Positions 5,700-18,206 of a stretch of DNA of 64,000 bases are shown here, piece after piece. Both the position numbers and the translations under genes were made by a program. The notes beneath the pieces were generated by a model. It was not told the origin of the DNA, did no database searches, and saw only the letters and a list, made by a program, of their open reading frames with translations. The stretch's first letter is position 1. Each line of letters starts with the position of its first letter. The stretch comes from Gammaproteobacteria bacterium (GTDB lineage Bacteria > Pseudomonadota > Gammaproteobacteria > Eutrophobiales > Eutrophobiaceae). The stretch spans positions 37,801 to 101,800 of the forward strand of contig OZ245888.1 in the NCBI GenBank assembly GCA_965229565.1, read 5' to 3'.

Positions 5700-5920
5700 T
5701 TTGCCCGTTTACTTAAACCAGTGAAAGTTTACATATACGTGAGGCTAACGGTGCCTCAACTTAAATCTCTAATTATTGTTATCGCAAGAGCTATGCCAAA
5801 AAGCCTGCTCGTATAAAACCATTGTATATCAACATTTCATGAATATTTAGTCGATTAAGCAGGATATTTCGTGCACCAAAAAGATAAAACCGGTGTCAAT
5901 CGTGCACAATTTCAGCGCAT

Positions 5921-7219
5921 CTATCGATTCAGTTTTTCCAATTGTGCCAACTCGACCAGGCAGTTCTCGACCTTGTGCCCGGAGAGATAACTCACCACAT
6001 TGTCCGGATCGAAGACGATGTTATCCATGTATTTATCTGCACCCAGTTTGAAATCCAGGTCGTCATCATCCAGCTTCCATTCACTGCCCTGTTCACCCTC
6101 GGTCTTGTAATTGAAAGACGGGTAAGTCAGACCAAGACGACTGGCGGCCAATCGATACACATCCGGCCGATAAACTGCTTCTGCAATCTGCTTGATATCG
6201 ATGACTTCCTGTAATTGCCCCCAGCGATACATCTGGCTAATGATCCATGTGGCATGTGAACACCAGGGGAAATTGGCCTGGTAGCGATGAAATACATGCA
6301 TATCAGGAATTGACCTGGGTTCAGCATCGGCATGGTTATTAAAGTTGCCCGCCAGCGATGCACGAATAATATCGGGTTCTATACCAATGTACTCATCACT
6401 TGCGAGTACATTGGCAAAACTGTCACGATTATTAGCGTTATCTATCCATGCCGCAGCCTCGATCAAGGCCATTACCAGGCAAAGGTGTGTTTTCGGGTGT
6501 TTCGCGGCCCAGTCCCTTGTAACACCGAACACCTTCTCCGGCGAATTATTCCATATCTGGTAACCACTGGTTAACAGTTTCCCAACACCCATACTCACGG
6601 CACAACTGTTCCATGGTTCACCCACGCAGAAACCATCAATCAGTCCGTCCTTGAGGTTATCCACCATGTACTGAGGAGGAATGACTTTTAGTGCCACGTC
6701 CCTGTCCGGGTTAATCCCGGCGGCTGCCATCCAGTAACGTATCTCATAATTATGATTTGAATACGGGTAAACCATGGCAAAGTTAAGCATAGGCTTTCCC
6801 GCCGCACTGTCCTCCTGCAGAATTTGTTTCAATGCTTTTGCTGAAAGGTTGGGATCATTTTCTATGTTGGCGTCTTTTTCCAGCAATCTTTCATAAAGCG
6901 CTTTTGATACAGTAATTGCGTTTCCATTCAGGTTCATACTGAACGATGTCACCATGGGTTTCTTGTTAAAACCAAGTCCCAACGTCGTTGCGATGGTCAT
7001 GCCCGCCAGCATGTGAGCGCCATCCAGTGCGCCCACGCATACCTTGTCACGAATATTGGCCCAGGAGGCCTCGCGCGAAAGACTCACCTCCAGCCCGTAT
7101 TTTTTAAAGAAGCCCTGTTCCCTGGCTGCTACAAGCACACAGCAATCAACAAGAGGAATAAACCCCAGTGTTAATTCATGCTTTTCCGGTACAGGTAGCT
7201 TGCTTTTTTCAGTCATCAT
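5921..7219 (-). CDS. nasS: Nitrate/nitrite sensor NasS (cytoplasmic NrtA-like binding protein)
   Basis: 432 aa NrtA-like protein with no signal peptide (MMTEKSKLPVPEKHELTLGFIPLVDCC...). Its start overlaps the stop of the ANTAR regulator gene (ATGA), as in the classic nasT-nasS arrangement. Confidence 0.7.
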   Translation of the reverse strand: MMTEKSKLPVPEKHELTLGFIPLVDCCVLVAAREQGFFKKYGLEVSLSREASWANIRDKVCVGALDGAHMLAGMTIATTLGLGFNKKPMVTSFSMNLNGNAITVSKALYERLLEKDANIENDPNLSAKALKQILQEDSAAGKPMLNFAMVYPYSNHNYEIRYWMAAAGINPDRDVALKVIPPQYMVDNLKDGLIDGFCVGEPWNSCAVSMGVGKLLTSGYQIWNNSPEKVFGVTRDWAAKHPKTHLCLVMALIEAAAWIDNANNRDSFANVLASDEYIGIEPDIIRASLAGNFNNHADAEPRSIPDMHVFHRYQANFPWCSHATWIISQMYRWGQLQEVIDIKQIAEAVYRPDVYRLAASRLGLTYPSFNYKTEGEQGSEWKLDDDDLDFKLGADKYMDNIVFDPDNVVSYLSGHKVENCLVELAQLEKLNR

Positions 7220-7821
7220 TATTTTCCCGTTCTCAACAGTTCTGCCGCAGCAATAATGCTGCGAGCCAGGTCAACCAGTTTCATGTTCCTGCTCATGGCA
7301 ATTTTTTGCATTGTTTTATGCGCGGTTTCCTCGTCATAATTTTGCTGCTTCATGACGATGCCCTTGGCCCTCTCGATCAACTTGCGTTCTTCCAGCGTGT
7401 TTTTTGTTTTCTCCAACTCTTCCCTGATTGATTGGTACTCCTTGAAGCGCGCCATCGCGGTTTCCAGGATTGGCATTACTCGTTGTGGATGCATCCCGTC
7501 TACGATGTATGCCGTCACACCAGCCTTCACTGCTTTCTGTATGGTGTCGCTGTCATCATCATTGGTGAACATCACGATCGGTCTTGGTCTCTCTGCACTA
7601 ATACTGTGCATATGTTCGATGGTATCGCGGTCAGGTGAATCCATATCGATAATGATAATGTCTGGCTGGTAACGACTGACAAGTTGCGGAAGGTCATGCC
7701 CTGAAGAGGCGGTGGCCACAATCCTGTGACCCAGGTTGGTCAACAATTTTTCCATCGCCATCGAGCGCTCAGGCAATTCATCAATGATCATAATGTTGAG
7801 TTGTTTATTGTCTCTAGCCAT
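7219..7821 (-). CDS. nasT: ANTAR-domain RNA-binding response regulator NasT
   Basis: REC domain (NIMIIDELP...DIIIIDMD) plus a C-terminal ANTAR domain (ERKLIERAKGIVMKQQNYDEETAHKTMQKIAMSRNMKLVDLARSII). The ORF-track start at 7926 is probably too early. An ATG at 7821 gives MARDNKQLNIMIIDE and a ~200 aa product. Confidence 0.75.
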   Translation of the reverse strand: MARDNKQLNIMIIDELPERSMAMEKLLTNLGHRIVATASSGHDLPQLVSRYQPDIIIIDMDSPDRDTIEHMHSISAERPRPIVMFTNDDDSDTIQKAVKAGVTAYIVDGMHPQRVMPILETAMARFKEYQSIREELEKTKNTLEERKLIERAKGIVMKQQNYDEETAHKTMQKIAMSRNMKLVDLARSIIAAAELLRTGK

Positions 7822-7870
7822 ATTAATTATTGTGTTTTCAATGCTCTTAGCTAATTTTGCTCTTTCATAA

Positions 7871-7903
7871 TAAACAAAAGACCCCCGGCCTTTTTGGCCG
7901 GGG
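7871..7903 (-). terminator. Rho-independent terminator downstream of the porin gene
   Basis: CCCCGGCC-AAAAA-GGCCGGGG hairpin followed on the minus strand by TCTTTTGTTT. It lies between the porin stop (7956) and the nasT start. Confidence 0.5.
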
Positions 7904-7955
7904 ATCCTGTAATTAATCAACAACAAACTGATTATGATTTCTGGTTTATTACTGC

Positions 7956-9218
7956 CTAGTACTTGAAGGTAAAGTACGCCCAGTACTTACTTAAATCAGT
8001 CGATTTCGGGTTACCCACATCCGAAGATGCATCGTATCCTGCATATTTCAGACCAACGGTATAGTGCTTGGCAAATTTTTTGGTAAACCAGATATCCAGT
8101 TCGTCACCATAATCAAAGCCGGCGTTCTCCGCCTCAAGCATATGATAGGAAACGATCAGTTTGGTATCGTAAGCACCGGTCGCGACAACGGTAAAGTAAG
8201 TGTCTTCGATACCAGCAGCCGGGGTGGCGAGGAAATTATCAGCCCAACCCTGGAAGGCGTGACCGGTTGCCAGCGGTGTCTTGAACGCATTGACACCATC
8301 ACCCGCACTTTCAAGCACCTCGTAACTGACCTTGGCCATCAGCGATTTGATAAACATCCCGTCGAACCTGGTTTTAAAACCACCTTCAAACAGGTAATAA
8401 TCCGCGTCATAGCTCGCAGCCGAGTTACCACCTTCTTCCTGCATGGCATACTCGGCGGTATAGATTAACCTGGTTCCCTCTTTAAATATCGGGAAACCAC
8501 CGTCAGCGCGGAGACCATATGTTTCTGTAGACAACCCGGGTAAATCATCAAATTCCAGATCGTAGTAATAACCCTCGAGATTTACATATTTCAGGCCTTT
8601 GTATTGCGCATTCAGGATTGGGGCACTCATATCACGGTCGGTACCGAAGATGGTGTTGTTATTCCAGATATAACCAGCCAACAGCGTGGTATCAGGCAAC
8701 GAGGTGTTGGTAACGGTAATCGAATCCTGGGTCTGCCAGTTTTGACGCCAGAGGACAGTGCCCAGGAAACGATGAAACGGGGCGGCCCTGGGCGTAATAA
8801 TCTGGCGACCAACTTTCACGAGCGTATCATTCATGAAAGTACCACCAAGGAATGCCTGGTTGATTTCGGTTCCACTTGGATCAGCTATTGTAGGCAAAGT
8901 GCCACGACCATTACGGGTATCATTGTACTGGGTATCACTCAAAACATCGGTGGTGTTTTCAAACTGTATGTAGCCAAACACATTATGAAAACTGCCCGTT
9001 TTATATCCCAGCGTTGACCGTACGGTAAACGCATCACCATCGTCAGTCTTCGAGTCATCTTCTACAAATTCGTAACGTGGCCGGAAACTGAAGTCCACCT
9101 TGCCGCTGGTCAATGCTTCCATCAATGCATCGTCAGCCTGAACGCTCATGCTCGTAGCGGACATCCCCATTAAGATGACGCCAGATATCGTCAATTGCTT
9201 ATAAATATTAGTTTTCAC
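7956..9218 (-). CDS. Outer-membrane beta-barrel porin associated with the nitrate assimilation locus
   Basis: Signal peptide (KTNIYKQLTISGVILMGMSATSMSVQA), alternating amphipathic beta-strand pattern, and C-terminal aromatic residues (YFTFKY). The ORF-track start is a TTG at 9254. A GTG at 9218 preceded by GAGGGAGA is the more likely start. Substrate specificity cannot be read from the sequence. Confidence 0.55.
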   Translation of the reverse strand: MKTNIYKQLTISGVILMGMSATSMSVQADDALMEALTSGKVDFSFRPRYEFVEDDSKTDDGDAFTVRSTLGYKTGSFHNVFGYIQFENTTDVLSDTQYNDTRNGRGTLPTIADPSGTEINQAFLGGTFMNDTLVKVGRQIITPRAAPFHRFLGTVLWRQNWQTQDSITVTNTSLPDTTLLAGYIWNNNTIFGTDRDMSAPILNAQYKGLKYVNLEGYYYDLEFDDLPGLSTETYGLRADGGFPIFKEGTRLIYTAEYAMQEEGGNSAASYDADYYLFEGGFKTRFDGMFIKSLMAKVSYEVLESAGDGVNAFKTPLATGHAFQGWADNFLATPAAGIEDTYFTVVATGAYDTKLIVSYHMLEAENAGFDYGDELDIWFTKKFAKHYTVGLKYAGYDASSDVGNPKSTDLSKYWAYFTFKY

Positions 9219-9252
9219 TACTTTTCTCCCTCTGGTACTACTTTTTTGAAAC

Positions 9253-9284
9253 AAAAAAAAACCACGTCAGCGAGCTGAGCGTGG
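9253..9284 (-). terminator. Rho-independent terminator in the porin leader (second candidate antitermination site)
   Basis: On the minus strand, hairpin CCACGCTCAGC / GCTGACGTGG followed by 9 T, ending ~35 nt upstream of the porin start. No ORF lies upstream on that strand, so it acts as a leader attenuator rather than a gene-end terminator. Confidence 0.5.
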
Positions 9285-9843
9285 CTTCATTACCGATTAG
9301 TAAATCTTTTACTTTCTGATTACGCCATTGTAATCAATCGTGATACTGCAAATGTAACAACGTAAATGCAGTTACCACAAAACATGGAAAGCACTAGTGC
9401 AATTAACAGGCCAACATATTACGGGTTTGAATTTATTACGTTTTTGTTAATCCAGCGCGTGAACGGACAAGCGCTATTGCACAACATTAGTTCGAAACAG
9501 GTTTGATTTGCCCGATTTAAGTGCTCGAACAATAAATACACTGCTGCTAAAAGATTTTTACTATTCGTTCTTAACAAGAATTTTATTATCGATACTGACG
9601 TTTATGATCACAAGAAAGAAAATATTTGTTCAATAATGATGCAATGATTCATCAAAAGAGTGCACAAGTTCTCTATTAGAACACCATGTCAATAATATGA
9701 GAGCAACAATAACAAGAACTTATACTGCTATTAAATTATGGCATACATCATGCAATTATCTTTAGCGTTCTAACGTTGGAACTATATGAATTAATAATTT
9801 CGGTTGCTGCACATCAGCGACTTTAATTTCTAAGAGACAAAGG

Positions 9844-9894
9844 CGTCGCTTAGTTGATTGATAGAACTGTCAATCAACCAGCGGCGTTTTTTTT
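9844..9894 (+). terminator. Strong Rho-independent terminator 13 nt upstream of the start codon of the flavoprotein-membrane fusion gene (third candidate antitermination leader)
   Basis: Perfect 9-bp inverted repeat GTTGATTGA (9853-9861) / TCAATCAAC (9870-9878) plus an outer CGTCGC/GCGGCG stem, followed by T8 (9887-9894). A competing upstream pairing GCGAC (9817-9821) / GTCGC (9845-9849) could serve as the antiterminator. Confidence 0.55.
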
Positions 9895-9907
9895 GGACGA
9901 TATTTAA

Positions 9908-11890
9908 GTGAATACAGCCCTAAAGCTGGATAAAAATCTGGCTGAAAAAATACTATCAAGAAGTAACAAGCCGATAGTCATCGTTGGTACGGGACCGGTG
10001 GGCATGCGTTTTCTTAATGATTTGCTTGCCGACGGCATCAATCAGCCGGTAGTTATCTATGGCGGAGAGCCCTGGATGCCCTATAACCGGGTTCGCCTTT
10101 CTTCACTGCTGGCTGGAGAGATCAGCCACCAGGATATCCTGATTCCAGACTCGAATACTGGACCACAATCGCTAATTAAACGCTATAACTGCCGCGTCGT
10201 GCGTATCGATCCTGATAATAAACTGGTTGAAGATGAGCACGGGCAAACACAGGAATACGAAAAATTAATCCTTGCTACCGGTTCCAATGCATTCGTGCCC
10301 GAAATTCCCGGTATAAACATGAGGGGTGTTTACCAGTTTCGGGACCTAAAGGATACCGAGCACCTGATGGCCCGGCGCACAAGCAGTCGCCACACGGTAG
10401 TGTTGGGAGGAGGTTTACTGGGTCTTGAAGCCGCCCGGGCCATGCAACGTTACAGCACGCATGTATCAGTTATTGAACACAACCGTTTCCTCATGTTTCG
10501 ACAATTGGACGAAACCGCAGCAGGCATTTTCAAGCAACATGTTGAATCTATGGGCATCGATGTTTACCTGCAGGAATCAGTTAAACAGGTTCACGGCGAA
10601 GATCGTGTTACTCACATTGAATTACGTTCAGGCAAGGTACTGACCTGTGACACATTAATAGTATCTGCCGGTATTACTCCTAATATTGAACTGGCGAAGC
10701 AGGCCGGCCTGGCCTTTGGTAGAGGGATCAAGGTCAACGATGCGATGCAGACATCCAACCCTGATATATATGCAATCGGTGAATGTTGTGAGCATCAGGG
10801 ACAAATTTACGGCATTGTTGCGCCCGGTTATGAACAGGCCCTGATCGCGGCCATGAACATAGCCAGTAAACCCATGAAATACAAAGGCACGGTTCTGGCT
10901 ACCAGTCTCAAGGTTGTCGGCAAGCCTGTGTTCAGTATGGGTGATGTCGATGACAGTGTTCGTACCTACTCGACCTATACCTATCAAAAGGACGGTTTCT
11001 ATCGTCGCCTTAATGTGTATCGCGGCCGGTTACTTGGCGTTATAGCAATCGGTGAATGGTCGGAACTGATTCAACTCAAGGAACATGTCAAAAAAGGCAG
11101 GTTACTGTTTCCGTGGCAACTGCGACGTTTTACCAGTACTGGTGAGCTATGGGACAGCGATATTTTACAGGAAGTCACCCAGTGGCCTGCCGAGGCCACG
11201 GTTTGTTCGTGTAACGGCATATCTCGTGGGCAGCTCAGCAAGGAAATCAATAGCGGTTGCAGGACGATTTCACAACTTGCTGAAAAAACCGGGGCCTCCA
11301 CGGTTTGCGGTTCTTGTAAACCATTGCTGGTTAATATGCTCGGTCAGAAAGAGATTGAACCGACACGCGGCTGGAAACCATTATTGAAGGGTTCCGTGAT
11401 TGTAGTTGTTATGTGTTTCGTCGCTTACCTGCTCCCGGCCATACCCTATAACGATACGGTCCAGGTATCCTGGCGCTGGGACATGCTGTGGACCGAAAGC
11501 CTGTTCAAGCAGATCAGCGGTTTCACACTTCTGGCCATGTCTGTCCTGGTATTAATCCTGTCATTACGCAAGCGAATCAAATGGATCTCATGGGGAGATT
11601 TTCCAATCTGGCGCCTGCTTCATGCCCTGCTCGGCGGTAGCGCTATTTTTGTCCTGTTAATACATACCGGTTTTCGCCTTGGCGACAATCTGAATTTTTA
11701 TCTGATGATGAGTTTTACGTCGCTGTTATTGGTTGGCGCAATTATCGGTTCCGTGATTGCCATGGAACATAAGCTGGCCGCAAGCACAGTAAGACAGTTA
11801 AGAAATATCGGAACCTGGCTGCACATACTCCTGTTCTGGCCAATTCCAGTGTTGCTCGGCTTTCATATTTTTAAAACCTATTACTTTTAA
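9908..11890 (+). CDS. NirB-N-terminal-like NAD(P)H flavoprotein (FAD/NAD + BFD 2Fe-2S) fused to a C-terminal ferric-reductase-like di-heme-b membrane domain
   Basis: GTG start. Residues 1-~470 align motif-for-motif with the NirB N-terminus: GTGPVGMRF, YNRVRLSS, ATGSNAFVP, VLGGGLLGLEAA, NPDIYAIGECC, VAPGY, and BFD cysteines CSCNGISRG...CGSCKP. The C-terminal ~190 aa has 4-5 TM helices carrying two HX13H pairs (LLHALLGGSAIFVLLIH; WLHILLFWPIPVLLGFH), as in ferric-reductase/NOX heme-b domains. Confidence 0.7.
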   Translation: MNTALKLDKNLAEKILSRSNKPIVIVGTGPVGMRFLNDLLADGINQPVVIYGGEPWMPYNRVRLSSLLAGEISHQDILIPDSNTGPQSLIKRYNCRVVRIDPDNKLVEDEHGQTQEYEKLILATGSNAFVPEIPGINMRGVYQFRDLKDTEHLMARRTSSRHTVVLGGGLLGLEAARAMQRYSTHVSVIEHNRFLMFRQLDETAAGIFKQHVESMGIDVYLQESVKQVHGEDRVTHIELRSGKVLTCDTLIVSAGITPNIELAKQAGLAFGRGIKVNDAMQTSNPDIYAIGECCEHQGQIYGIVAPGYEQALIAAMNIASKPMKYKGTVLATSLKVVGKPVFSMGDVDDSVRTYSTYTYQKDGFYRRLNVYRGRLLGVIAIGEWSELIQLKEHVKKGRLLFPWQLRRFTSTGELWDSDILQEVTQWPAEATVCSCNGISRGQLSKEINSGCRTISQLAEKTGASTVCGSCKPLLVNMLGQKEIEPTRGWKPLLKGSVIVVVMCFVAYLLPAIPYNDTVQVSWRWDMLWTESLFKQISGFTLLAMSVLVLILSLRKRIKWISWGDFPIWRLLHALLGGSAIFVLLIHTGFRLGDNLNFYLMMSFTSLLLVGAIIGSVIAMEHKLAASTVRQLRNIGTWLHILLFWPIPVLLGFHIFKTYYF

Positions 11891-11907
11891 GTGAACCCTG
11901 AAACTGA

Positions 11908-13359
11908 ATGCTCAAAAACAAAAATCTATGGCTATGGTTGATATGGCTTTTACTCACGCTTGCATTTACAACATACCTGGTAATGAAGATTAATAACAAG
12001 GCGGCAGATAAATCAATTTTTCTCCCTGGTGAAACCACGCACGGTCATCATCAAATAGAACTCGCCTGCGGAGCCTGCCATAGCAAATCGTTTGCTGACA
12101 AGGAAGCAATACAGGAGTCCTGCATGAATTGTCATGGCAAGGCATTAAAAGACAATGATGACAAACATCCAAAAAGCAAGTTTACCGACCCACGTAATGC
12201 CGAACGTGTTGCGATACTGGATGCCCGCTATTGCGTCACCTGCCATATAGAACACAACCCGGAAGTTACATTGGAAATGGGCGTGACCATGCCGCCTGAC
12301 TATTGCCACCTCTGTCATGAAAAAATCGCGGAGGAACGCCCCAGTCATGAAGGTATGGCATTTACCACCTGTGCTTCGGCCGGTTGTCATAACTACCACG
12401 ACAACCAGGCACTGTATGAAGACTACCTGATCAAGCATTTACATCAGCCCGATATCCTCGATAAACAGGAATTTCCGCCGGACTTGAACCTTGATGAACT
12501 CGCACCGGTATTACCCGAGTATCCGATCAAGGATTATCCGCTCGAACGCCTGAAACTGGTCGATGCGAATGCGCCACTAAATATTGAATACGACGCCGAG
12601 ATTCTATACGAATGGTTTGACACCACGCATGCCAACTCCGGTGTGAACTGTACTGCCTGCCACCAGCAAACAATTAATGAAAAGACGGTATGGACCGACA
12701 CGCCCGATCACAAGGTTTGTGCAAGTTGCCATGGACCCGAGGTAGATGGCTTCCTGGCAGGCAAACATGGTATGCGCCTGGATAGCGAAAGACTAAAACA
12801 GGAACTCACAGCAATGACACCCGACCTGGCACGTCTCCCGATGAAGAAAGACGTGCAACACAAGGAGCTGGGTTGTAACAGTTGCCATGAAGCACACGAC
12901 TATAACACCACCACGGCCCGGGTAGAGGCCTGCCTGGGTTGCCATGATGATGAACACAGCCTGGCCTATATCGATTCGCCACACCATAAACTCTGGAAAC
13001 AGGAACTGGCGGGTGAACTACCCGAACACAGTGGCGTTACCTGTGCCACCTGTCATATGCCACGAATAGAAAAGGAATTCATGGACGGCATGTTTTACAT
13101 GGGCATCGTGCAACACAACCAGAACGACACACTGCAACCAAATGAAAAGATGCTGCGACCGGTATGCATGGACTGCCATGGACTGGGCTTTGGCATTGAT
13201 GCCCTTGCCGATGAAAAACTGATTCATAACAACTTCGACGGGCAGCCAGGCGTTCATATTGAAAGCATGGACATGGCCGAAGTCCGCATGAAAGAAGCAG
13301 AGGAAAAGAGGAGACGTCTACGCGAGCAGGCTAAAGACGAAAATTCACCAACCCCATAA
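11908..13359 (+). CDS. Membrane-anchored multiheme cytochrome c with 10 CXXCH motifs plus one CX4CH
   Basis: N-terminal TM anchor (LWLWLIWLLLTLAFTTYLV). Heme motifs: CGACH, CMNCH, CVTCH, CHLCH, CASAGCH, CTACH, CASCH, CNSCH, CLGCH, CATCH, CMDCH. Several occur as doubled CXXCH pairs. 483 aa. Confidence 0.8.
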   Translation: MLKNKNLWLWLIWLLLTLAFTTYLVMKINNKAADKSIFLPGETTHGHHQIELACGACHSKSFADKEAIQESCMNCHGKALKDNDDKHPKSKFTDPRNAERVAILDARYCVTCHIEHNPEVTLEMGVTMPPDYCHLCHEKIAEERPSHEGMAFTTCASAGCHNYHDNQALYEDYLIKHLHQPDILDKQEFPPDLNLDELAPVLPEYPIKDYPLERLKLVDANAPLNIEYDAEILYEWFDTTHANSGVNCTACHQQTINEKTVWTDTPDHKVCASCHGPEVDGFLAGKHGMRLDSERLKQELTAMTPDLARLPMKKDVQHKELGCNSCHEAHDYNTTTARVEACLGCHDDEHSLAYIDSPHHKLWKQELAGELPEHSGVTCATCHMPRIEKEFMDGMFYMGIVQHNQNDTLQPNEKMLRPVCMDCHGLGFGIDALADEKLIHNNFDGQPGVHIESMDMAEVRMKEAEEKRRRLREQAKDENSPTP

Positions 13360-13386
13360 AAAAACCAGCACTACAGGAGAAGTAAA

Positions 13387-13971
13387 ATGTTAAAACTGAA
13401 AAAAGTCATGATTACGGCCACACTGGTAGCAGCTTGTGCCCTGCCATTCACAGCATCGTCGGAGATAGCCGATACACCGACGTTTACGCCCAAGCAGTTG
13501 GCCGACTGGCTACACCTGGTTATGTCGACTGACCGGGCGGTTTATACCAAGAAGATTGTGAACAGACTGGTAAAGAAGGACAAGGTCATCAAGGCCAGCG
13601 AGCATTTTGAAGATGACAAGGCCCTGGTATTACCGGCACAGATGTTCCGCTTCGGTGCAGAAGAAGTCGCCAAGAAAACGGACCAGTTTACCTATTCTCT
13701 GCAATCACTATGGCCTATCAACAAGCAGAACGCCCCGCGCACTGAAATAGAAAAGGCCGGCCTCGCCTATGTTAGCGAGAACAAGGGAGAAAACTACTAC
13801 GGTGTTGAAGAACTCGGGGGCACCCAGTATTTCACCGCCGTGTATGCCGACCCCGCTGTTGCGCCTGTTTGTGTCAGCTGTCATAACGAACACAAGGACA
13901 CACCAAAGAGTGATTTCAAACTGGGTGATGTTATGGGCGGCGTGGTGATTCGTATACCTCTGAAGGGCTAA
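13387..13971 (+). CDS. Periplasmic heme-binding protein, DUF3365/Tll0287-like
   Basis: Signal peptide followed by a single C-terminal CVSCHNEH heme motif and GDVMGGVVIRIP. The overall length and motif placement match the DUF3365 family (assignment from memory of family features). Confidence 0.5.
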   Translation: MLKLKKVMITATLVAACALPFTASSEIADTPTFTPKQLADWLHLVMSTDRAVYTKKIVNRLVKKDKVIKASEHFEDDKALVLPAQMFRFGAEEVAKKTDQFTYSLQSLWPINKQNAPRTEIEKAGLAYVSENKGENYYGVEELGGTQYFTAVYADPAVAPVCVSCHNEHKDTPKSDFKLGDVMGGVVIRIPLKG

Positions 13972-13975
13972 CGAA

Positions 13976-14338
13976 ATGCGTTCTGCCATCACATTATCCA
14001 TGACTTTGTGCCTGATGCCTTTTTTCGTACACGCAGACGAAAGCCGGTATCGGGATTTTGACAGCGATCACCTGATTTTTGGCAAAAAAGTCTGGATTGA
14101 AACATGTGAAGGCTGCCACGGCTGGGGAATAGGTGGTGCACCTATTCCCCTCCACTACGACCAATGGGAAGACCGCATCGCCAAGGGTAAAGACATCCTG
14201 TACCAGCATGCTATCGATGGATACTTTGGACCCGATGACAGCATGATGCCCGAGCGTGGCGGTAACCCGGAACTCAGTGACGAAGAAGTCAAAGCTGCCG
14301 TGGATTACATGGTTGAACTGGCAAAAAGTCACCAATAA
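13976..14338 (+). CDS. Monoheme class I cytochrome c (c5/c-553-like)
   Basis: Signal peptide, a single CEGCHG heme motif, a downstream Met ligand region (MMPERGG). 120 aa. Confidence 0.7.
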   Translation: MRSAITLSMTLCLMPFFVHADESRYRDFDSDHLIFGKKVWIETCEGCHGWGIGGAPIPLHYDQWEDRIAKGKDILYQHAIDGYFGPDDSMMPERGGNPELSDEEVKAAVDYMVELAKSHQ

Positions 14339-14358
14339 ACGAGACGAGGAGAATTGCA

Positions 14359-14772
14359 ATGACCCCGAAACAAATTGAACTGGTTAGCGGCACCTGGGAA
14401 ATGGTGTTACCCATTTCAGACCAGGCTGCGGCCATGTTCTATGCCCGGCTATTTGAGATCGCGCCTGAAGTAAAACCGCTGTTTTCCGGTGATATGGAAG
14501 CACAGGGTAAGAAACTGATGCAAATGATCAACACCGCAGTGGATAACATCGAAGATGTGGAAAAGATCATTCCAGCACTTGAAGATTTGGGTAAACGCCA
14601 TGTTGGGTATGGCGTCACAGATGAACACTACGCCCAGGTGGCAGAAGCATTACTATGGACCCTGGAGCAAGGGCTGGGTGACGCTTTTACAGAGGATGTG
14701 AAACAGGCGTGGACGGAAACCTACATGACGCTGGCAGGCGTCATGATTGAGGCTTCAAAGGAAGCTGCTTAA
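14359..14772 (+). CDS. Single-domain bacterial hemoglobin (Vitreoscilla/Cgb-like globin)
   Basis: FYARLFEIAPEVKPLF resembles the VHb helix B/C region FYKNLFAKHPEVRPLF. A proximal His lies in GKRHVGYGVTDEHY. 137 aa, no signal peptide. Confidence 0.65.
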   Translation: MTPKQIELVSGTWEMVLPISDQAAAMFYARLFEIAPEVKPLFSGDMEAQGKKLMQMINTAVDNIEDVEKIIPALEDLGKRHVGYGVTDEHYAQVAEALLWTLEQGLGDAFTEDVKQAWTETYMTLAGVMIEASKEAA

Positions 14773-14839
14773 GTGAGAAACAACGTGACCAGGGACGGTC
14801 ATTACCGTGTACCGCAATGCAACCGTCTGTATACCATGT

Positions 14840-14870
14840 AAAAAAAACCCGCCAATGGCGGGTTTTTTTA
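14840..14870. terminator. Bidirectional Rho-independent terminator
   Basis: AAAAAAAA-CCCGCC-AAT-GGCGGG-TTTTTTTT. It ends the plus-strand redox operon and the convergent minus-strand small gene. Confidence 0.8.
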
Positions 14871-14886
14871 TTTCCTTAACCTGTGA

Positions 14887-15111
14887 TTACTCGGTAATCA
14901 CTACTTCAGCAGAGCCTTCAGCTTCTGAAGACGTACCAAGCTCTGCATTACAGTCCAGGATGAAGTTATCATATTCTTCACCAGCCAGACCAAGTTCTGC
15001 AGCTTCCTGTTCGCAGGTCATATCCACAACCTGGCCTTCCTCTGCAACAGCACGGGAAGAATAAACCATGCCTGACAGGCACAGGATTAGTAGTAGTTCT
15101 AACGATTTCAT
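14887..15111 (-). CDS. Small secreted acidic hypothetical protein (74 aa, 2 Cys)
   Basis: Signal peptide MKSLELLLILCLSGMVYSSRAVA followed by an acidic mature region. No recognisable family. Confidence 0.35.
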   Translation of the reverse strand: MKSLELLLILCLSGMVYSSRAVAEEGQVVDMTCEQEAAELGLAGEEYDNFILDCNAELGTSSEAEGSAEVVITE

Positions 15112-15416: not shown

Positions 15417-15776
15417 ATGATGAAAAACAGCAGTAAATACCTGTTAATTGCCGGGGGTATCGCGTTAGGTACCGTGGGCGGTATAACGATTGGCGTCTCA
15501 AGTGCGGACGATTTACATGAAGTCGCCCGGGCGCCACAGGACTTTATCCAGAAGGTAAACGGAAATAGCCCCAAAAAACCACTGTTACCGATTAACAAGA
15601 TCATCGGTCAATACGAAAACGATGGCAGCCAGGTCACGGAAATCGAGCTGGACCGCGAACTGTTCCGGGATGTTTACGAACTGGAACTTGTCGATGCCAG
15701 TGGCCAGGGCTGGGATATCGATGTAGATGCCCGAACTGGAGAGGAATTATCAAAATACAAGGATTGGGACGACTAG
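15417..15776 (+). CDS. PepSY-domain protein (membrane-anchored), BqsP-like
   Basis: N-terminal anchor followed by a PepSY signature (TEIELDRELFRDVYELELVDASGQGWDIDVDARTGEEL). Confidence 0.6.
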   Translation: MMKNSSKYLLIAGGIALGTVGGITIGVSSADDLHEVARAPQDFIQKVNGNSPKKPLLPINKIIGQYENDGSQVTEIELDRELFRDVYELELVDASGQGWDIDVDARTGEELSKYKDWDD

Positions 15777-15838
15777 TTCATTGTCGTATTATAGCCCGGT
15801 AACCTCAGGTTGCCGGGCCAATACCTGAAAAGCTGGAG

Positions 15839-16216
15839 ATGAAAATGAGAAATGTAATACTGATACTTGGAGGCCTGCTACTTATGGCTATTCAGCCCGG
15901 CATGGCAGCAACGAGTGAAAAAGGGCTCTCCCCGTTTGATATTGTACAACTGGAACAGATGGTAATCGTTGCCGAAGCCGATTTCTCGGCCGATGAAATT
16001 AAGCAGTTGAAAGACTCTGGTAACATCATGCCGCTCGAATCCATCCTGCAACTGGTACAAAAGAATTATGAGGGCCGGATCATCGAGGTTGAACTTGATA
16101 AAGAAGACAAAACGTATGTCTACGAAATAGAACTCGTCGATGATAATAATATTGTCTGGGAACTGGAAGTTGACGCGGCAACCGGCAAAGTGCTTAAACG
16201 TGAGCAGGACGACTAA
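15839..16216 (+). CDS. PepSY-domain periplasmic protein, BqsQ-like
   Basis: Signal peptide followed by a PepSY signature (IIEVELDKEDKTYVYEIELVDDNNIVWELEVDAATGKVL). Confidence 0.6.
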   Translation: MKMRNVILILGGLLLMAIQPGMAATSEKGLSPFDIVQLEQMVIVAEADFSADEIKQLKDSGNIMPLESILQLVQKNYEGRIIEVELDKEDKTYVYEIELVDDNNIVWELEVDAATGKVLKREQDD

Positions 16217-16881
16217 TGCGAATATTGCTGGTTGAAGATGACGTAGCACTGGCCAATGATCTGCAAAAAAAGCTACTTCAATCAGGATTCGTGGTAGACG
16301 TTAGCCATGACGGCATCGATGGTAAATTCAGGGCAGATACTGAATCCTATGATGCGGTCATTCTTGACCTGGGTTTGCCCGGCCAACCCGGCATAGAAGT
16401 CTTGCAACAGTGGCGCAACGATAATAATGACATTCCCGTATTAATACTGACCGCACGTGGTGCCTGGCACGAAAAAGTCGATGGCTTCAAGGCTGGTGCC
16501 GATGATTACCTAAGCAAACCATTCCATGTTGAGGAACTCATAGCCCGCCTGCAGGCTTTGATACGACGCCGAAATGGGCGTGCCGGGGCAACGTTAACGG
16601 CAGCCGGCCTCACACTGGATGAAGACACACAGCAACTCACGCTTGCCAACAACAGCAGCGTCGATCTCACCGCCACTGAATTTCGTATGCTCTCGTACCT
16701 GATGCAACATCCGGACAAGATCCTATCCAAATCGCGCCTGATAGAGCATGTACTGGCCAGCGACTCTGCCGGAGATGAAAATCTTATCGAGGTTTACATC
16801 AATCGGTTGCGACGCAAGATAGGCCCTGGGAAGATCGAGACACGACGCGGACAGGGATACATATTAAAGGACACGGATTGA
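16216..16881 (+). CDS. OmpR-family two-component response regulator
   Basis: REC domain (MRILLVEDDVALA...ILDLGLPG) plus a winged-helix C-terminus (RLRRKIGPGKIETRRGQGYIL). Its stop overlaps the kinase gene start. Confidence 0.85.
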   Translation: MRILLVEDDVALANDLQKKLLQSGFVVDVSHDGIDGKFRADTESYDAVILDLGLPGQPGIEVLQQWRNDNNDIPVLILTARGAWHEKVDGFKAGADDYLSKPFHVEELIARLQALIRRRNGRAGATLTAAGLTLDEDTQQLTLANNSSVDLTATEFRMLSYLMQHPDKILSKSRLIEHVLASDSAGDENLIEVYINRLRRKIGPGKIETRRGQGYILKDTD

Positions 16882-18206
16882 AATCATTAAAGGCACGTCT
16901 TGGGATAGAACTGGTTATCGCACTCATCGTTGTGTTCGCACTGCAGTGGGCACTGGTCAGTTATTTTATCAAGTACGTTACAGAAACCTATATCACTTCG
17001 CGTATCGAACATGACATTGATGTACTGCTAGCCAACATTGTTATAAACGAACAAGGCAATATAACGCTGGCCCGAGAACCGGAAGGAAGGTATAGCGAGG
17101 GACCATTTACCGGCCACTATTACGTGATCAGGGCCAACAACGAGATTTTACGCTCCCGCTCACTCTGGGATCAGTCTCTGGATATCAATACTGTTGGTGT
17201 TGGCGCTACATCCCTGCAACGTCTCCGGGGTCCGCTGGAACAGCCCTTGCTGATGGTAACCAAGGGCTTCAACAAGCTGTATACCGATATCAATGTGACC
17301 GTGGCCGAAGACATCACAACCCTGAATAGCGGCATCAAGACAATGCAGTCAGCATACTTGCTATTGTCGTCATGTCTGCTGTTATTGCTGTTATTGTCAC
17401 AACAGTGGATCGTGCATCGAGCATTAAAGTCACTAACTACGACCCGCCTGAACCTTGAGCGCGTCAGTCGTGGAGATACAGACAATTTGTCCGAGGCTGT
17501 TCCTGACGAAGTGTTACCACTGGTTCAGGAAATCAACCTGCTACTTGAATTATTATCGCGCCGTTTGCAAAAAACCCGTACGGCCGTGGGTAATCTTGCG
17601 CATTCGCTAAAGACGCCGTTAAGCCTTTTAAAAAATATAAAAGATGATCCGGCAATAAAAAACGAAACTGAATTATTAACTACCCTGGACAAACAAATCG
17701 AATCGATCCAGGTCACGCTGGAACGTGAACTGAATCGTGCCAGGCTTGCTGGCGATGCCAAATCCGGGCAGCGTTTTCTGCCGGGCAAGGAATTACCAGC
17801 ATTGGTTGAAACCCTGGAGCAAATATATAAAGAGCAGAACCTGGAAATTGTATTGGTCAACCAGCAACAAACCAGTTGGAACGCAGACCGCGAAGATATG
17901 CTGGAACTGTTCGGCAACCTCGCGGACAACGCCTGCAAATGGGCAAAATCAACAGTGACAATCACATTGGGCACTCAGCCTGGCCAGTTCACCATTGAGG
18001 ACGATGGCCCGGGCTTTCCTGCCGACCAGATCGAGTTGCTAAGCCAGCGCGGCCAACGCCTGGACGAATCTATACAGGGTCACGGACTGGGACTATCTAT
18101 TGTTCATGATATCGTGCAGTTTTATAAGGGTACGATTGAATTCGAACCATCTGCCGAGATAGGTGGGTTGCTTGTAAAGGTAAAACTCTTTAATAACCAG
18201 GAGTGA
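16878..18206 (+). CDS. Sensor histidine kinase with two TM helices and a periplasmic loop containing REPEGRYSE
   Basis: TM1, a ~140 aa periplasmic region, TM2 (LLLSSCLLLLLLL), HisKA H-box (LAHSLKTPLSLL) and HATPase_c (GHGLGLSIV). Confidence 0.8.
   Translation: MKSLKARLGIELVIALIVVFALQWALVSYFIKYVTETYITSRIEHDIDVLLANIVINEQGNITLAREPEGRYSEGPFTGHYYVIRANNEILRSRSLWDQSLDINTVGVGATSLQRLRGPLEQPLLMVTKGFNKLYTDINVTVAEDITTLNSGIKTMQSAYLLLSSCLLLLLLLSQQWIVHRALKSLTTTRLNLERVSRGDTDNLSEAVPDEVLPLVQEINLLLELLSRRLQKTRTAVGNLAHSLKTPLSLLKNIKDDPAIKNETELLTTLDKQIESIQVTLERELNRARLAGDAKSGQRFLPGKELPALVETLEQIYKEQNLEIVLVNQQQTSWNADREDMLELFGNLADNACKWAKSTVTITLGTQPGQFTIEDDGPGFPADQIELLSQRGQRLDESIQGHGLGLSIVHDIVQFYKGTIEFEPSAEIGGLLVKVKLFNNQE

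Follow-up and report, generated by a model that had tools for sequence, protein, structure and literature searches.

Five genes on the forward strand of the window (the whole 64,000-nucleotide stretch of gammaproteobacterial DNA that was analyzed) form a conserved, apparently uncharacterized operon with control like that of the adjacent nitrate-assimilation genes. We tentatively propose that the operon belongs to the nitrate-assimilation regulon and encodes a module that exports electrons from NAD(P)H, probably so that N-oxides can be handled in the periplasm. We regard this reading as quite possible.

Organization and Distribution of the Operon

9908-11890, forward strand: gene 1, flavo-FeS-cytochrome b of 660 aa (Pfam and NCBIfam matches, alignment, AF2 model)
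11908-13359, forward strand: gene 2, membrane-anchored undecaheme cytochrome c (heme motifs, Pfam, profile alignments)
13387-13971, forward strand: gene 3, secreted Tll0287-like (DUF3365) monoheme c protein (E 1.7e-20, conserved residues)
13976-14338, forward strand: gene 4, secreted class I monoheme cytochrome c (C44xxC47H48, Met91)
14359-14772, forward strand: gene 5, cytoplasmic single-domain globin of the flavohemoglobin lineage (Pfam, NCBIfam, conserved residues)
14841-14869, forward strand: operon terminator, bidirectional, with a 13-bp stem and then a T-run (from sequence)

The genes are separated by gaps of 4-27 nt. All five reading frames of an earlier note on this DNA were recovered at the same positions, and the single terminator that it placed behind the set is a strong one. 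The nitrate-assimilation genes lie upstream of the operon and are divergent from it.

1-1343, reverse strand: nirB-like gene that extends beyond the window; its flavoprotein/BFD part is seen over at least 447 aa
1362-5616, reverse strand: nitrate ABC transporter (nrtA, 4258-5616; nrtB, 3050-4177; fused nrtCD, 1362-3041)
5921-7219, reverse strand: nasS, NMT1_2 nitrate/nitrite-binding sensor partner of NasT (domain matches)
7219-7926, reverse strand: nasT, response-regulator receiver and ANTAR domain (domain matches)
7956-9254, reverse strand: porin-like outer-membrane gene, divergent, apparently of the same regulon

The porin-like gene, which was absent from the earlier note, sits between the nas/nrt genes and the operon. 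It gave no Pfam match and a weak match to the Opr-porin model NF033923 (E 2.3e-7). A GTG near 9218 is its probable real start codon, and homologues are present in 15 of 80 loci. Downstream of the operon, the window contains a two-component pair (response regulator and histidine kinase).

In all 80 related loci, genes 1 and 2 lie side by side. For the other genes, the counts refer to the 67 loci whose downstream sequence was long enough: 66 have gene 3 next, 40 have gene 4 and 27 lack it, and a globin of any kind is present in 56 and absent from 11. The globin is of the gene 5 type in 52 loci; in five, a truncated hemoglobin replaces it, and a Fer2-FAD-NAD reductase is next to it in four of those. 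The set is thus not unique to this DNA. Nitrate-transporter or nasST genes are found within 10 kb in 43 of the 80 loci, and no nas or nrt gene was found within this distance in about half of them. Besides genes for nitrate transport and regulation, no recurrent neighbors were found among the loci. In a scan of 185,579 species genomes, 325 loci matched the architecture. The suggestion that this architecture is not a described one therefore holds in part: it is common in databases, yet it is unnamed and apparently uncharacterized in the literature searched, where no paper describing the five-gene module was found.

The Leader and Regulation

9739-9754, forward strand: sigma-54-type promoter of the operon, TGGCAT-N5-ATGCA (motif)
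9767-9782, forward strand: leader hairpin P1, gttct-AACGTT-ggaac, hexaloop with A1 and G4, ANTAR-target type
9836-9847, forward strand: leader hairpin P2, gac-AAAGGC-gtc (from sequence)
9842-9894, forward strand: leader intrinsic terminator, GGCGTCGCT...AGCGGCG then T8, 13 nt before the start of gene 1
5657-5798, reverse strand: leader of nrtA with sigma-54 promoter TGGCATAGCTCTTGCG, hairpin gggc-AAAGGC-gtcc overlapping the terminator, then T9
9255-9413, reverse strand: leader of the porin-like gene with sigma-54-like TGGCCTGTTAATTGCA, hairpin gattac-AATGGC-gtaatc, terminator then a T-run

P1 lies inside a sub-threshold match to the Rfam narK RNA (RF03032; 9740-9849, 20.2 bits). P2 is a candidate anti-terminator, since the 5′ arm of the terminator begins with the 3′ arm of P2. 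The minimum free energy fold of the leader (9760-9907) was -47.5 kcal/mol (z = -5.7), and none of 200 shuffled sequences was as stable. Of 78 related loci, 56 have a sigma-54-type motif upstream of gene 1, where shuffled sequences would lead one to expect 2.1, and 54 have a P2-equivalent hexaloop hairpin 15-75 nt before a T-run (4.9 expected). Within the window, the leader of nrtA is designed like that of gene 1, including the P2-type element. The Cupriavidus necator H16 gene 1 leader has both the sigma-54-type motif and the P2-type element. These features agree with the NasT-style leader terminator proposed previously.

In published RNA-seq data, the C. necator orthologues H16_B0948, H16_B0950 and H16_B0951 rose 22- to 37-fold upon N depletion (65 to 1456, 60 to 2180 and 110 to 2447, respectively), and this induction occurred without added nitrate (PMC3734047). 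The locus tags were anchored via PMC12271211 and the L081 gene order. The synteny in 43 of 80 loci, the leader shared with nrtA and kept across loci, and the N-depletion response make the link to nitrate assimilation much stronger than it could be in the earlier note. The regulatory part of our model is supported by the sequence and by one published data set. The sigma-54 promoter would make transcription dependent on nitrogen limitation, presumably via NtrC, and the ANTAR-type dual-hairpin leader overlapping the terminator would make read-through dependent on NasT and hence on nitrate or nitrite.

Gene 1: A NirB-type Flavoprotein with a Membrane Domain

Residues 22-400 of gene 1 form a NirB-type FAD/NAD(P)H module, and residues 431-478 form a BFD-like 2Fe-2S domain with C433, C435, C467 and C470. 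Pfam matches were obtained with Pyr_redox_2 (E 6.5e-57), Rubredoxin_C and Fer2_BFD (E 1.6e-10). The NCBIfam NirB model TIGR02374 matches only through its positions 1-468 of 794, scoring 392 bits where the cutoff is 578. Both modules had been recognized in the earlier note. In the alignment of homologues, the FAD and NAD glycine motifs and the four BFD cysteines are invariant. The N-terminal part of gene 1 therefore corresponds to the N-terminal half of NirB; the remainder is a membrane domain joined by fusion.

11372-11887, forward strand: C-terminal membrane domain of gene 1, residues 489-660 (TM prediction)

Five TM helices were predicted (489-508, 532-553, 565-587, 594-618 and 625-659), and the AF2 model (mean pLDDT 83.8) also has five. 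Two HX13H pairs, H572/H586 and H639/H653, are present, and all four histidines, as well as H621, are invariant across 73 homologues. The loop charges obey the positive-inside rule with a cytoplasmic N-terminus. In the predicted topology, H572 and H639 are on the side of the cytoplasmic face and H586 and H653 on that of the periplasmic face.

The earlier note had assigned this domain to the NOX/FRE/MsrQ ferric-reductase type. This assignment was not supported: the best match to PF01794 had E = 0.33 and was obtained in only two of 15 members, and hhalign against a verified PF01794 member gave a probability of 0.16%. No Pfam family was above threshold for the domain, and no sequence relatives of it were found in the PDB. 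HX13H pairs are known in other di-heme cytochromes b too. We therefore describe it as an unclassified, putative di-heme-b domain, with heme binding read from the histidine pattern. The domain occurs in 738 clusters (50% identity), nearly always at the C-terminus of proteins of about 660 aa. Because it is also fused to BFD and FNR-type FAD_binding_6/NAD_binding_1 modules, it is, judging from these fusions, a module for NAD(P)H flavoproteins.

Gene 2: An Undecaheme Cytochrome c

Gene 2 possesses an N-terminal TM anchor, ten CXXCH motifs and one CX4CH. All 11 heme motifs are kept in 70 homologues, and twelve non-motif histidines are conserved for the 11 hemes. The motif count given earlier was correct; CX4CH, which had been called rare, is normal in class III cytochromes c3. 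The N-terminal half is a c3-like pentaheme (PF02085 and PF14537). The C-terminal half is a hexaheme homologous to hemes 2, 3, 5, 6, 7 and 8 of hydroxylamine oxidoreductase (HAO), with profile matches to Kustc0457 (E 4.6e-8), Kuenenia HAO (KsHAO, 4n4j; E 4.4e-6) and Nitrosomonas HAO (NeHAO, 1fgj; E 1e-3).

This half is collinear with HAO, but it does not have the catalytic heme-4 site. Opposite the heme-4 CXXCH, gene 2 has LPMKKDVQHKEL in all three alignments, and neither a heme-4 CXXCH nor a CXXCK was found in any of the 70 orthologues. Unlike HAO and NrfA, gene 2 is without the active-site heme; therefore, it probably acts as a wire of roughly 11 hemes and not as an HAO enzyme. A catalytic site, if there is any, would then be elsewhere.

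Genes 3 to 5

Gene 3 is the most conserved protein of the set, with C162xxC165H166, H169 and L82-PAQMFR-88 conserved, and the match behind its DUF3365/Tll0287-like assignment (E 1.7e-20) bears out the earlier identification. The Tll0287 family (PF11845) is a PAS-like heme c domain and is often fused to signalling proteins. The Cys ligand of Tll0287 is missing in gene 3. Gene 3 is our candidate for a ligand-binding or catalytic heme, but it may also be a simple His/Met electron carrier or act as a sensor. In none of the periplasmic proteins of the operon did we identify a catalytic site. Gene 5, expected to be a globin, matches the Hmp N-terminal domain, and Tyr28 (B10), Gln49 (E7) and His81 (F8) are conserved.

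Proposed Electron Path and Alternatives

From this anatomy, we infer the following path. Gene 1 would oxidize NAD(P)H at the NirB-type FAD domain. From there, the BFD-type 2Fe-2S cluster would pass the electrons on to a transmembrane stack of two b hemes, in which H572/H639 would ligate the inner and H586/H653 the outer heme. The outer heme would reduce heme 1 of gene 2, an HAO-derived scaffold that has lost its catalytic heme, and this wire would deliver electrons to gene 3, its near-universal partner, and to gene 4 where present. Such a chain would be dedicated, quinone-independent and switched on together with nitrate assimilation. Thus, of the earlier interpretation, the inside-out conduit stands as the natural reading of a positive-inside topology with a pair of invariant histidine ligands near each face, and the nitrate link stands as well; membership of the ferric-reductase family is not supported.

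Periplasmic N-oxide chemistry by the operon is plausible. The most likely purpose is the reductive removal or scavenging of reactive N-oxides (NO, nitrite or hydroxylamine) in the periplasm during nitrate/nitrite assimilation, and this is the least certain step. As a counterpoint, the source organism also carries ordinary cytoplasmic nitrate assimilation, as C. necator presumably does, so that it is hard to see why a periplasmic branch would be needed. The induction of the C. necator genes without added nitrate, the many loci with no nas or nrt gene nearby, those that have no globin and the lack of an identified catalytic site also count against our reading.

The chain may instead feed NAD(P)H electrons through gene 4 or gene 3 into the general pool of periplasmic c-type cytochromes, with terminal enzymes encoded elsewhere (e.g., cNor, cytochrome c peroxidase, NirS/NirK or NosZ) and no catalytic subunit in the operon. 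Gene 2 does resemble a pure wire, without a heme-4 site and with sufficient histidines for all-bis-His ligation; gene 4 is a typical soluble class I shuttle cytochrome, and no catalytic gene recurs in the neighborhood. However, 27 of 67 loci lack gene 4, while gene 3, the most conserved protein, is found almost everywhere; regulation of so tight a nitrate type points to a specific task, and bypassing complexes I and III while dissipating membrane potential seems costly. We consider this feed rather unlikely.

An assimilatory periplasmic nitrite (or hydroxylamine) reductase is improbable. Here, gene 2, alone or with gene 3 docked at the position of HAO heme 4, would make ammonium that is then taken up, as a second route beside NirBD, driven by NAD(P)H. 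Gene 2 is homologous to the HAO/ONR/NrfA superfamily, some orthologues carry an NrfA-like auto-annotation and weak PF02335 matches, its invariant HGMR (287-290), M312 and HPKSKFTDPRNA (87-98) are free of an assigned role, and the operon is regulated like N-scavenging genes. The lack of CXXCK and heme-4 CXXCH throughout the orthologues nevertheless speaks against it, the window already has a nirB-like gene, and the docked split active site is pure speculation.

Slightly less probable again is a function apart from N-oxides, such as periplasmic metal reduction (e.g., of Fe(III), as a supply for the iron-rich Nas/Nir enzymes), the disposal of electrons outside the cell, or the balancing of redox state when carbon is in excess and N is limiting. 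In its logic, the chain is similar to NOX/ferric reductases and to multiheme wires for metal reduction, a porin-like gene adjoins the operon, and the induction in C. necator took place in an N-depleted, carbon-rich PHA phase without nitrate (PMC3734047). Nevertheless, no outer-membrane cytochrome or MtrB-type partner recurs among the loci, the only recurrent neighbors concern nitrate, the ANTAR/NasT-type leader is conserved, and globins co-occur, being swapped for other globins. Finally, it is very unlikely that gene 3 reports periplasmic redox or NO status through its PAS-like heme domain, a fold that serves as a sensor module, with the chain only poising this heme: a two-component pair does lie downstream, but it is not kept in other loci, gene 3 stands alone without an output domain, and an 11-heme wire with a dedicated NAD(P)H flavocytochrome would be extravagant for poising a sensor.

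If the proposed export of electrons for N-oxide handling is correct, aerobic bacteria with ubiquinone as their only quinone could drive periplasmic hemes of low potential by drawing on NAD(P)H and not on ubiquinol. On the cytoplasmic side, the Hmp-type globin of gene 5 would dioxygenate NO and may be reduced by the gene 1 flavoprotein. Reduction of a globin by a NirB-like flavoprotein has already been proposed for Flp-Bjgb of Bradyrhizobium, where a NasT-controlled globin and NirB-like flavoprotein act in NO defence during nitrate assimilation (PMC4724949).

Organization and Conservation of the Gene Cluster

ORF calling in the window placed genes 1 to 5 on the + strand, from 9908 to 14772, with intergenic gaps of 4-27 nt. 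The window lies on a 2.75-Mb contig of a MAG from an uncultured gammaproteobacterium.

9908-11890, +: gene 1, flavo-FeS protein with a C-terminal membrane domain
11908-13359, +: gene 2, undecaheme cytochrome c
13387-13971, +: gene 3, Tll0287-like protein
13976-14338, +: gene 4, class I cytochrome c
14359-14772, +: gene 5, globin
14841-14869, +: operon terminator with a 13-bp stem, closing the five-gene set
14882-15110, -: small convergent ORF
15417-18206, +: two PepSY-domain proteins, then an OmpR-type response regulator and a histidine kinase

The earlier note had described the five genes, their domain content and the closing terminator; this observation was correct, and all of these elements were found in the window. 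The product of the small convergent ORF, about 76 aa long, begins with what looks like a signal peptide, and its mature part is acidic and contains Cys; the ORF has a bidirectional terminator in common with the operon. The PepSY and two-component genes lie directly downstream of the operon. Such genes were not conserved beside the cluster in 80 related loci. Therefore, they were left out of the system.

These loci were obtained by searching 185,579 species genomes with a profile of the gene 1 membrane domain. Relatives were detected at 325 loci, and 80 loci were fetched and compared. By tblastn with the window proteins, gene 2 directly followed gene 1 in all 80. The downstream genes were counted where at least 2.5 kb of sequence followed gene 2 (67 loci). 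Of these loci, 66 had gene 3, 40 had gene 4 and 56 had a globin. In five loci, a truncated hemoglobin (Bac_globin, PF01152) occupies the position of the Hmp-type globin, and in four of them it is followed by a Fer2/FAD_binding_6/NAD_binding_1 reductase. The loci with a truncated hemoglobin are as follows.

L005, 12665-14013
L059, L063, L066 and L069
In addition, L080, on the opposite strand

This non-orthologous displacement suggests that a globin function belongs to the system.

In a clustering of all ORFs of the loci, the only other recurrent neighbors were nrtA/nasS, nrtB, nrtC/D, nasT and a porin-like protein. At least one of nrtA, nrtB, nrtCD, nasS and nasT was present within 10 kb in 43 of the 80 loci, so that the expected linkage of related clusters to nitrogen-metabolism genes was observed. 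Hosts belong to the Gamma-, Beta- and Alphaproteobacteria; among them are Halioglobus, Haliea, Catenovulum, Sedimenticola, purple and colorless sulfur bacteria, Cupriavidus, Noviherbaspirillum and Methyloligella. Judged from the compared sequences, the cluster is a conserved system and not a chance juxtaposition. In databases, its proteins carry generic or wrong names ("NAD(P)/FAD-dependent oxidoreductase", "nitrite reductase (NADH) large subunit", "cytochrome c3 family protein", "NrfA- nitrite reduction protein" and "DUF3365"). Full-text searching found no published description of the cluster; since most subscription journals lie outside the coverage of this search, an earlier description is possible.

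The Flavoprotein Part of Gene 1

Gene 1 encodes 660 aa and matches the Pfam families Pyr_redox_2 (E 6.5e-57), Pyr_redox, Rubredoxin_C and Fer2_BFD (E 1.6e-10). The NirB-like character of the N-terminal part was borne out: gene 1 matched positions 1-468 of the 794 positions of the NirB model TIGR02374 (E 5e-117), and it has the FAD/NAD(P)H pyridine-nucleotide-disulfide-oxidoreductase fold and the BFD-like 2Fe-2S domain of the NirB N-terminus. The siroheme/4Fe-4S C-terminal half of NirB is absent from gene 1, and the score (392 bits) is below the curated cutoff of 578. About 170 hydrophobic residues occupy the place of this half. The FAD and NAD glycine motifs and the BFD residues C433, C435, C467 and C470 show full invariance or at least 90% conservation in 73 homologues with identities down to 45%. 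The window also contains a nirB-like gene; thus, the operon is not a replacement of NirBD in this genome.

The public gene call starts at Met33 and gives 628 aa, which cuts off the conserved GxGxxG FAD-binding motif (IVIVGTGPVG; window 9908-10003; locus L084). Alignment with homologues supports the GTG at 9908 as the true start, which gives 660 aa.

The Membrane Domain of Gene 1

An AlphaFold2 model of gene 1, built on 73 homologues (mean pLDDT 83.8), contains five transmembrane (TM) helices at residues 489-508, 532-553, 565-587, 594-618 and 625-659. Five His residues in this domain (H572, H586, H621, H639 and H653) are invariant or at least 90% conserved among the 73 homologues. The four His of the two HX13H pairs, noticed at first reading, are conserved throughout: H572/H586 on TM3 and H639/H653 on TM5 form invariant pairs with a 13-residue spacing and an in-to-out orientation. 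The fifth, H621, is invariant and lies at the cytoplasmic end of TM4. Based on an RKR motif and basic loops after TM2 and TM4, these loops and the flavoprotein were placed in the cytoplasm. Accordingly, H572 and H639 would face the inner side and H586 and H653 the outer side of the membrane. The His geometry in the model is that of a putative trans-membrane di-heme b.

The same His-pair pattern is found in Ferric_reduct / NOX / MsrQ domains (PF01794); it is not exclusive to PF01794. The earlier note had assigned the membrane domain to the ferric-reductase family. This assignment was rejected at the sequence level. A Pfam search with 15 gene 1 family members gave a PF01794 match in only two, with a best E of 0.33, and DUF6713 (2e-4) and DUF4405 (5e-3) matched weakly better, all below threshold. 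The hhalign probability against a verified PF01794 sequence was 0.16%, and no sequence relative of the domain was found in the PDB. A PF01794-type domain has six TM helices that bind two b hemes; the gene 1 model has five. With the whole model, the Foldseek matches were flavoprotein reductases only, as the N-terminal domain dominated the search. Neither the membrane domain nor full-length gene 1 or gene 2 is covered by a Pfam or NCBIfam model.

In a library of 1.84 billion representative proteins, the membrane domain formed 738 clusters at 50% identity, nearly all of them proteins of about 660 aa or fragments thereof. A few longer proteins (P0250, P0295 and P0383; 866-1013 aa) carry the same domain at the C-terminus, preceded by an EF-hand or cyclic-nucleotide-binding domain, BFD and FNR-type FAD_binding_6/NAD_binding_1. 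Since the domain is fused to BFD and FNR-type modules as well, NAD(P)H flavoproteins seem to be its regular partners, and it acts as a modular unit. The parts list of these longer proteins resembles that of NOX5, in a different order.

Gene 2 Is an Undecaheme Cytochrome with the Core of the HAO Superfamily

Gene 2 encodes 483 aa. It has an anchor helix at the N-terminus and 11 sites for heme c, and every one of these sites is conserved in 70 homologues. The N-terminal half matches class III cytochrome c3 families in Pfam, and this accounts for the CX4CH motif. This half was poorly modelled (pLDDT <50 at residues 84-167) and the C-terminal half well modelled. In profile searches against PDB sequences, the C-terminal half was collinear with Kustc0457 (E 4.6e-8), KsHAO (E 4.4e-6) and NeHAO (E 1e-3). 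Thus, in both fold and collinear heme motifs, gene 2 contains the core of the HAO/ONR/NrfA superfamily. The correspondence of the hemes is given in the table.

Table. Hemes of gene 2 and their counterparts in the HAO and TvNiR alignments
Gene 2 heme 6 (first Cys C248): HAO heme 2
Gene 2 heme 7 (first Cys C271): HAO heme 3
No heme of gene 2: HAO heme 4 (catalytic)
Gene 2 heme 8 (first Cys C323): HAO heme 5
Gene 2 heme 9 (first Cys C342): HAO heme 6
Gene 2 hemes 10 and 11: TvNiR (octaheme nitrite reductase) hemes 7 and 8

Opposite the heme-4 motifs CDMCH (Kustc0457), CAHCH (KsHAO) and CTMCH (NeHAO), gene 2 has the Cys-free segment "LPMKKDVQHKEL". In none of the 70 orthologues does this segment contain a Cys, and no CXXCK was found anywhere in them. 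A catalytic heme with CXXCH or CXXCK and an open distal site, as in heme 4 of HAO/ONR and heme 1 of NrfA, was therefore not found in gene 2. Twelve non-motif His residues are conserved in the family, for 11 hemes. From the missing heme-4 motif and these His residues, the best reading of gene 2 is a scaffold derived from HAO in which the active-site heme has been lost and which would serve as an electron wire.

As gene 2 has neither CXXCK nor a heme-4 site, the simple reading as an NrfA/ONR-type nitrite reductase was ruled out. A low-scoring alignment pairs "CLGCH" of gene 2 with the catalytic "CLNCK" of TvNiR; it was set aside because it conflicts with the higher-scoring collinear HAO alignments. 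A NapC/NirT-type quinol dehydrogenase was also considered and rejected, since gene 2 gave no PF03264 match. Other invariant elements of gene 2 are HPKSKFTDPRNA (87-98, in the c3-like half), M312 and HGMR (287-290). The KHGMR motif adjoins the position of the missing HAO heme 4.

Genes 3, 4 and 5

Gene 3 encodes a secreted monoheme Tll0287-like protein (DUF3365, PF11845; 74.4 bits against a gathering threshold of 24.1) with a C-terminal CXXCH. This motif, C162xxC165H166, is conserved in at least 95% of 56 aligned sequences. The heme of Tll0287 has His/Cys axial ligation. In the mature gene 3 protein, no Cys is conserved outside CXXCH among the 56 sequences; the distal Cys of Tll0287 is missing. 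Besides CxxCH, gene 3 conserves LPAQMFR (Met86) and H169; Met86 and His169 are candidate ligands. Gene 3 is the most conserved protein of the set, with about 52-77% identity where genes 1 and 2 have about 33-56%. Gene 3 is the most evident candidate for a terminal heme that binds ligands.

Gene 4 encodes a secreted class I cytochrome c. Gene 5 encodes a leaderless globin (E 2.6e-19), which covers only positions 3-139 of the Hmp model and has no reductase domain. Y28 (Tyr-B10), Q49 (Gln-E7) and H81 (His-F8) are conserved in at least 95% of 44 aligned sequences. Gene 5 is thus a single-domain globin of the flavohemoglobin lineage (Vgb/Cgb/Bjgb type).

Regulation and Expression

The following elements were found upstream of gene 1.

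9739-9754, +: sigma-54 -24/-12 motif TGGCATACATCATGCA, upstream of gene 1
9767-9782, +: leader hairpin gttct-AACGTT-ggaac
9836-9847, +: leader hairpin gac-AAAGGC-gtc
9842-9894, +: leader terminator (stem 9842-9886, T8 9887-9894)
7956-9254, -: divergent porin-like gene, secreted protein of about 420 aa (leader 9255-9413)

Targets of ANTAR proteins, as worked out for NasR, AmiR and EutV, have two hairpins with A1/G4 hexaloops, the second of which competes with a terminator. The gene 1 leader has this design: both hairpins carry A1/G4 hexaloops, and the 3' arm of the second is the first part of the long terminator stem. Its fold is far more stable than that of shuffled sequences (z = -5.7). The same design precedes nrtA in the window (TGGCATAGCTCTTGCG, gggc-AAAGGC-gtcc, then a terminator and T9) and the divergent porin-like gene; nasT and nasS lie between the porin-like gene and the nrtA leader. 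Among 78 related loci, the sigma-54 motif was found upstream of gene 1 in 56 (2.1 expected from shuffles), and a hexaloop hairpin 15-75 nt before a T-run in 54 (4.9 expected). The dominant hexaloops were AAAGGC, AACGGC and AATGGC. From these elements, we infer that the leader depends on NasT.

No leader matched an Rfam family at the gathering threshold. The narK RNA (RF03032; gathering 43.2) gave sub-threshold scores of 20.2 bits at 9740-9849 (+; gene 1 leader), 16.1 bits at 5692-5797 (-; nrtA leader) and 28.1 bits at 9857-9918 of L081, the related locus on chromosome 2 of C. necator H16 (E 1e-3 in a small search). The leaders share with RF03032 a sigma-54 promoter-like 5' part, an AACGGC-type hexaloop hairpin and a "GACAAAGRCGUC" element followed by a terminator. 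However, they score below gathering, and the hairpin spacing differs in this gammaproteobacterial MAG. Since gamma- and betaproteobacterial leaders are sub-threshold, RF03032 as built is narrower than the real distribution of the motif.

The porin-like protein has a C-terminal aromatic residue and a weak match to the Opr porin family NF033923 (E 2.3e-7); no Pfam match was detected. A sigma-54-like promoter, a hairpin with an AATGGC hexaloop and a terminator are found in its own leader, and homologues adjoin nrt genes in 15 of the 80 loci. Possibly, the gene encodes a nitrate/nitrite-regulated outer-membrane channel. The listed TTG start (9254) is inside the T-run of the terminator; thus, translation more likely starts at a GTG near 9218, which has GAGGGAG before it.

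In C. necator H16, the cluster corresponds to H16_B0948 to B0951, followed by ccmA-I. The tags were anchored by SelB (B0947) and Mrp (B0960) (PMC12271211); the annotations "NAD(FAD)-dependent dehydrogenase" and "hemoglobin-like protein" served as further anchors. In RNA-seq data for entry into the N-depleted phase, B0948 rose from 65 to 1456, B0950 from 60 to 2180 and B0951 from 110 to 2447 (PMC3734047, Additional file 1), which correspond to log2 rises of 4.5-5.2. The authors also listed B0948 among the genes with sigma-54 consensus promoters (PMC3734047). The complete cytochrome c maturation operon, ccmABCDEFGHI, is located directly after the globin gene (L081 14551-21306), which agrees with the large amount of heme c that the cluster requires.

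The link to nitrate metabolism, proposed in the earlier note, thus holds by nrt/nas synteny, by the sigma-54/ANTAR-type leader in many genomes and by the C. necator RNA-seq. The assignment of the cluster to a nitrogen-limitation and nitrate regulon rests on sequence in many genomes and one experimental data set.

Proposed Mechanism and Alternative Readings

Domain content, ligand conservation and topology signals uphold the proposal of an inside-out conduit from cytoplasmic NAD(P)H to periplasmic hemes. The earlier interpretation therefore stands in the conduit and the nitrate link, and falls in the ferric-reductase family. The sequence basis of the mechanism also includes synteny and the leader elements. 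Electrons would pass from NAD(P)H to FAD, 2Fe-2S, the inner and the outer heme b, and then to heme 1 of gene 2, which lies about 25 residues after the anchor helix. They would move along the 11 c hemes to gene 3 and, where present, gene 4. NAD(P)H is a much stronger reductant than ubiquinol, and the membrane potential would assist the outward movement of electrons. Thus, the chain could keep low-potential periplasmic hemes reduced in aerobic bacteria that have only ubiquinone, which would give a reason for bypassing the quinone pool. By analogy with the proposal for the Bradyrhizobium flavoprotein Flp, the globin may be reduced by the gene 1 flavoprotein.

The weakest step is the purpose, namely the handling of NO, nitrite or hydroxylamine during nitrate/nitrite assimilation. 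It is suggested by regulation of the nitrate type, by descent from HAO, by the persistence of a globin, whether Hmp-type or truncated, and by the precedent in Bradyrhizobium, where the NasT-controlled globin Bjgb and the NAD(P)H/FAD flavoprotein Flp act against NO from assimilatory nitrate reductase (PMC4724949). N-oxide catalysis by the operon is hypothetical, and the presumed catalytic cytochrome, gene 2, has no active-site heme. A further-reaching reading is a widespread, hitherto unrecognized branch of nitrate assimilation in which a quinone-independent, NAD(P)H-powered flavocytochrome b feeds the HAO-derived wire and the Tll0287-like heme replaces the catalytic heme in trans, giving a novel type of periplasmic N-oxide (NO, nitrite, hydroxylamine) reductase in aerobic ubiquinone-only bacteria. 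We regard this reading, taken as a whole, as speculative and rather doubtful.

Other readings were weighed against N-oxide handling. The wire-like gene 2 would fit a general supply of reducing power to the periplasmic c-type cytochromes, from which unlinked enzymes would draw, although the near-universal and highly conserved gene 3 is then less well explained. For a nitrite- or hydroxylamine-to-ammonium reductase, the active site would have to be non-canonical, such as one formed by gene 3 docked in the pocket that heme 4 has left. If the chain served metal reduction or redox dumping, the induction in C. necator without nitrate would be explained, but the ANTAR leader, the globins and the absence of outer-membrane partners would not. 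A sensor role of gene 3 is disfavored because it has neither an output domain nor a conserved signaling neighbor.

Nitrate assimilation is treated as purely cytoplasmic, with a transporter, NasA, and NirBD or NirA. To our knowledge, no periplasmic redox branch of it has been recognized. The conserved operon of at least three genes has the promoter type, leader and neighborhood of nitrate assimilation, yet its build is that of a device for moving NAD(P)H electrons outward, and the hosts of the 325 loci include marine heterotrophs, sulfur oxidizers and Cupriavidus. If NO, nitrite or hydroxylamine is handled, the system would be an unaccounted sink or source of N-oxides, including N2O precursors, in oxic waters and soils. 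It also offers new biochemistry, in the putative membrane di-heme module and the HAO scaffold minus its active site, and a first functional context for stand-alone Tll0287/DUF3365 proteins. The system is therefore of interest as widespread, unnamed and tightly co-regulated with a textbook pathway. It is directly testable in C. necator H16, a genetically tractable host of the operon that induces it strongly.

Comparison with Known Systems

The first ~470 residues of gene 1, including the BFD-type 2Fe-2S domain, resemble NirB, and the genomic and regulatory contexts are also alike. NirB continues with a sulfite/nitrite-reductase ferredoxin-like and siroheme/4Fe-4S half, whereas gene 1 continues with the membrane domain.

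In comparison with HAO/ONR/NrfA proteins (Kustc0457, KsHAO, NeHAO, IhOCC and TvNiR), the C-terminal six hemes of gene 2 resemble HAO hemes 2, 3, 5, 6, 7 and 8, and gene 2 shares the "CxxCHMP" heme-7-type motif and the long C-terminal helix. Gene 2 differs in having an added c3-like pentaheme module and an N-terminal membrane anchor, and in lacking the heme-4 motif and CXXCK. Its proposed electron source is NAD(P)H via the flavocytochrome b, in contrast to quinol (NrfH/NrfBCD) or substrate oxidation in those enzymes.

Bradyrhizobium's narK-bjgb-flp-nasC system (PMC4724949) is likewise a nitrate-assimilation operon under NasS/NasT control, which is inferred for NasT here. Both systems combine a single-domain Hmp-lineage globin with an NAD(P)H/FAD flavoprotein of the nas-operon type, in Bradyrhizobium for NO detoxification. 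However, Flp is soluble and also serves NasC, and that operon has no membrane cytochrome b domain, multiheme cytochrome or Tll0287-like protein.

NOX and the two-component bacterial chain Fre-MsrQ-MsrP also have a cytoplasmic NAD(P)H flavoprotein, two stacked b hemes and a periplasmic partner, an arrangement predicted from sequence in the present system. The His pairs on TM3 and TM5, their 13-residue spacing and the in-to-out orientation are the same. The flavoprotein of those systems belongs to the FNR class, whereas that of gene 1 is of the NirB/two-dinucleotide-binding class with a 2Fe-2S relay and, unlike theirs, is N-terminal to the membrane domain. The gene 1 domain has five TM helices in place of the six in NOX/ferric reductase and no detectable sequence relation to PF01794, and the partner is a multiheme cytochrome c instead of a molybdoenzyme or O2. 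Thus, NAD(P)H-driven trans-membrane electron export is known in principle, and its attachment to nitrate assimilation appears to be new.
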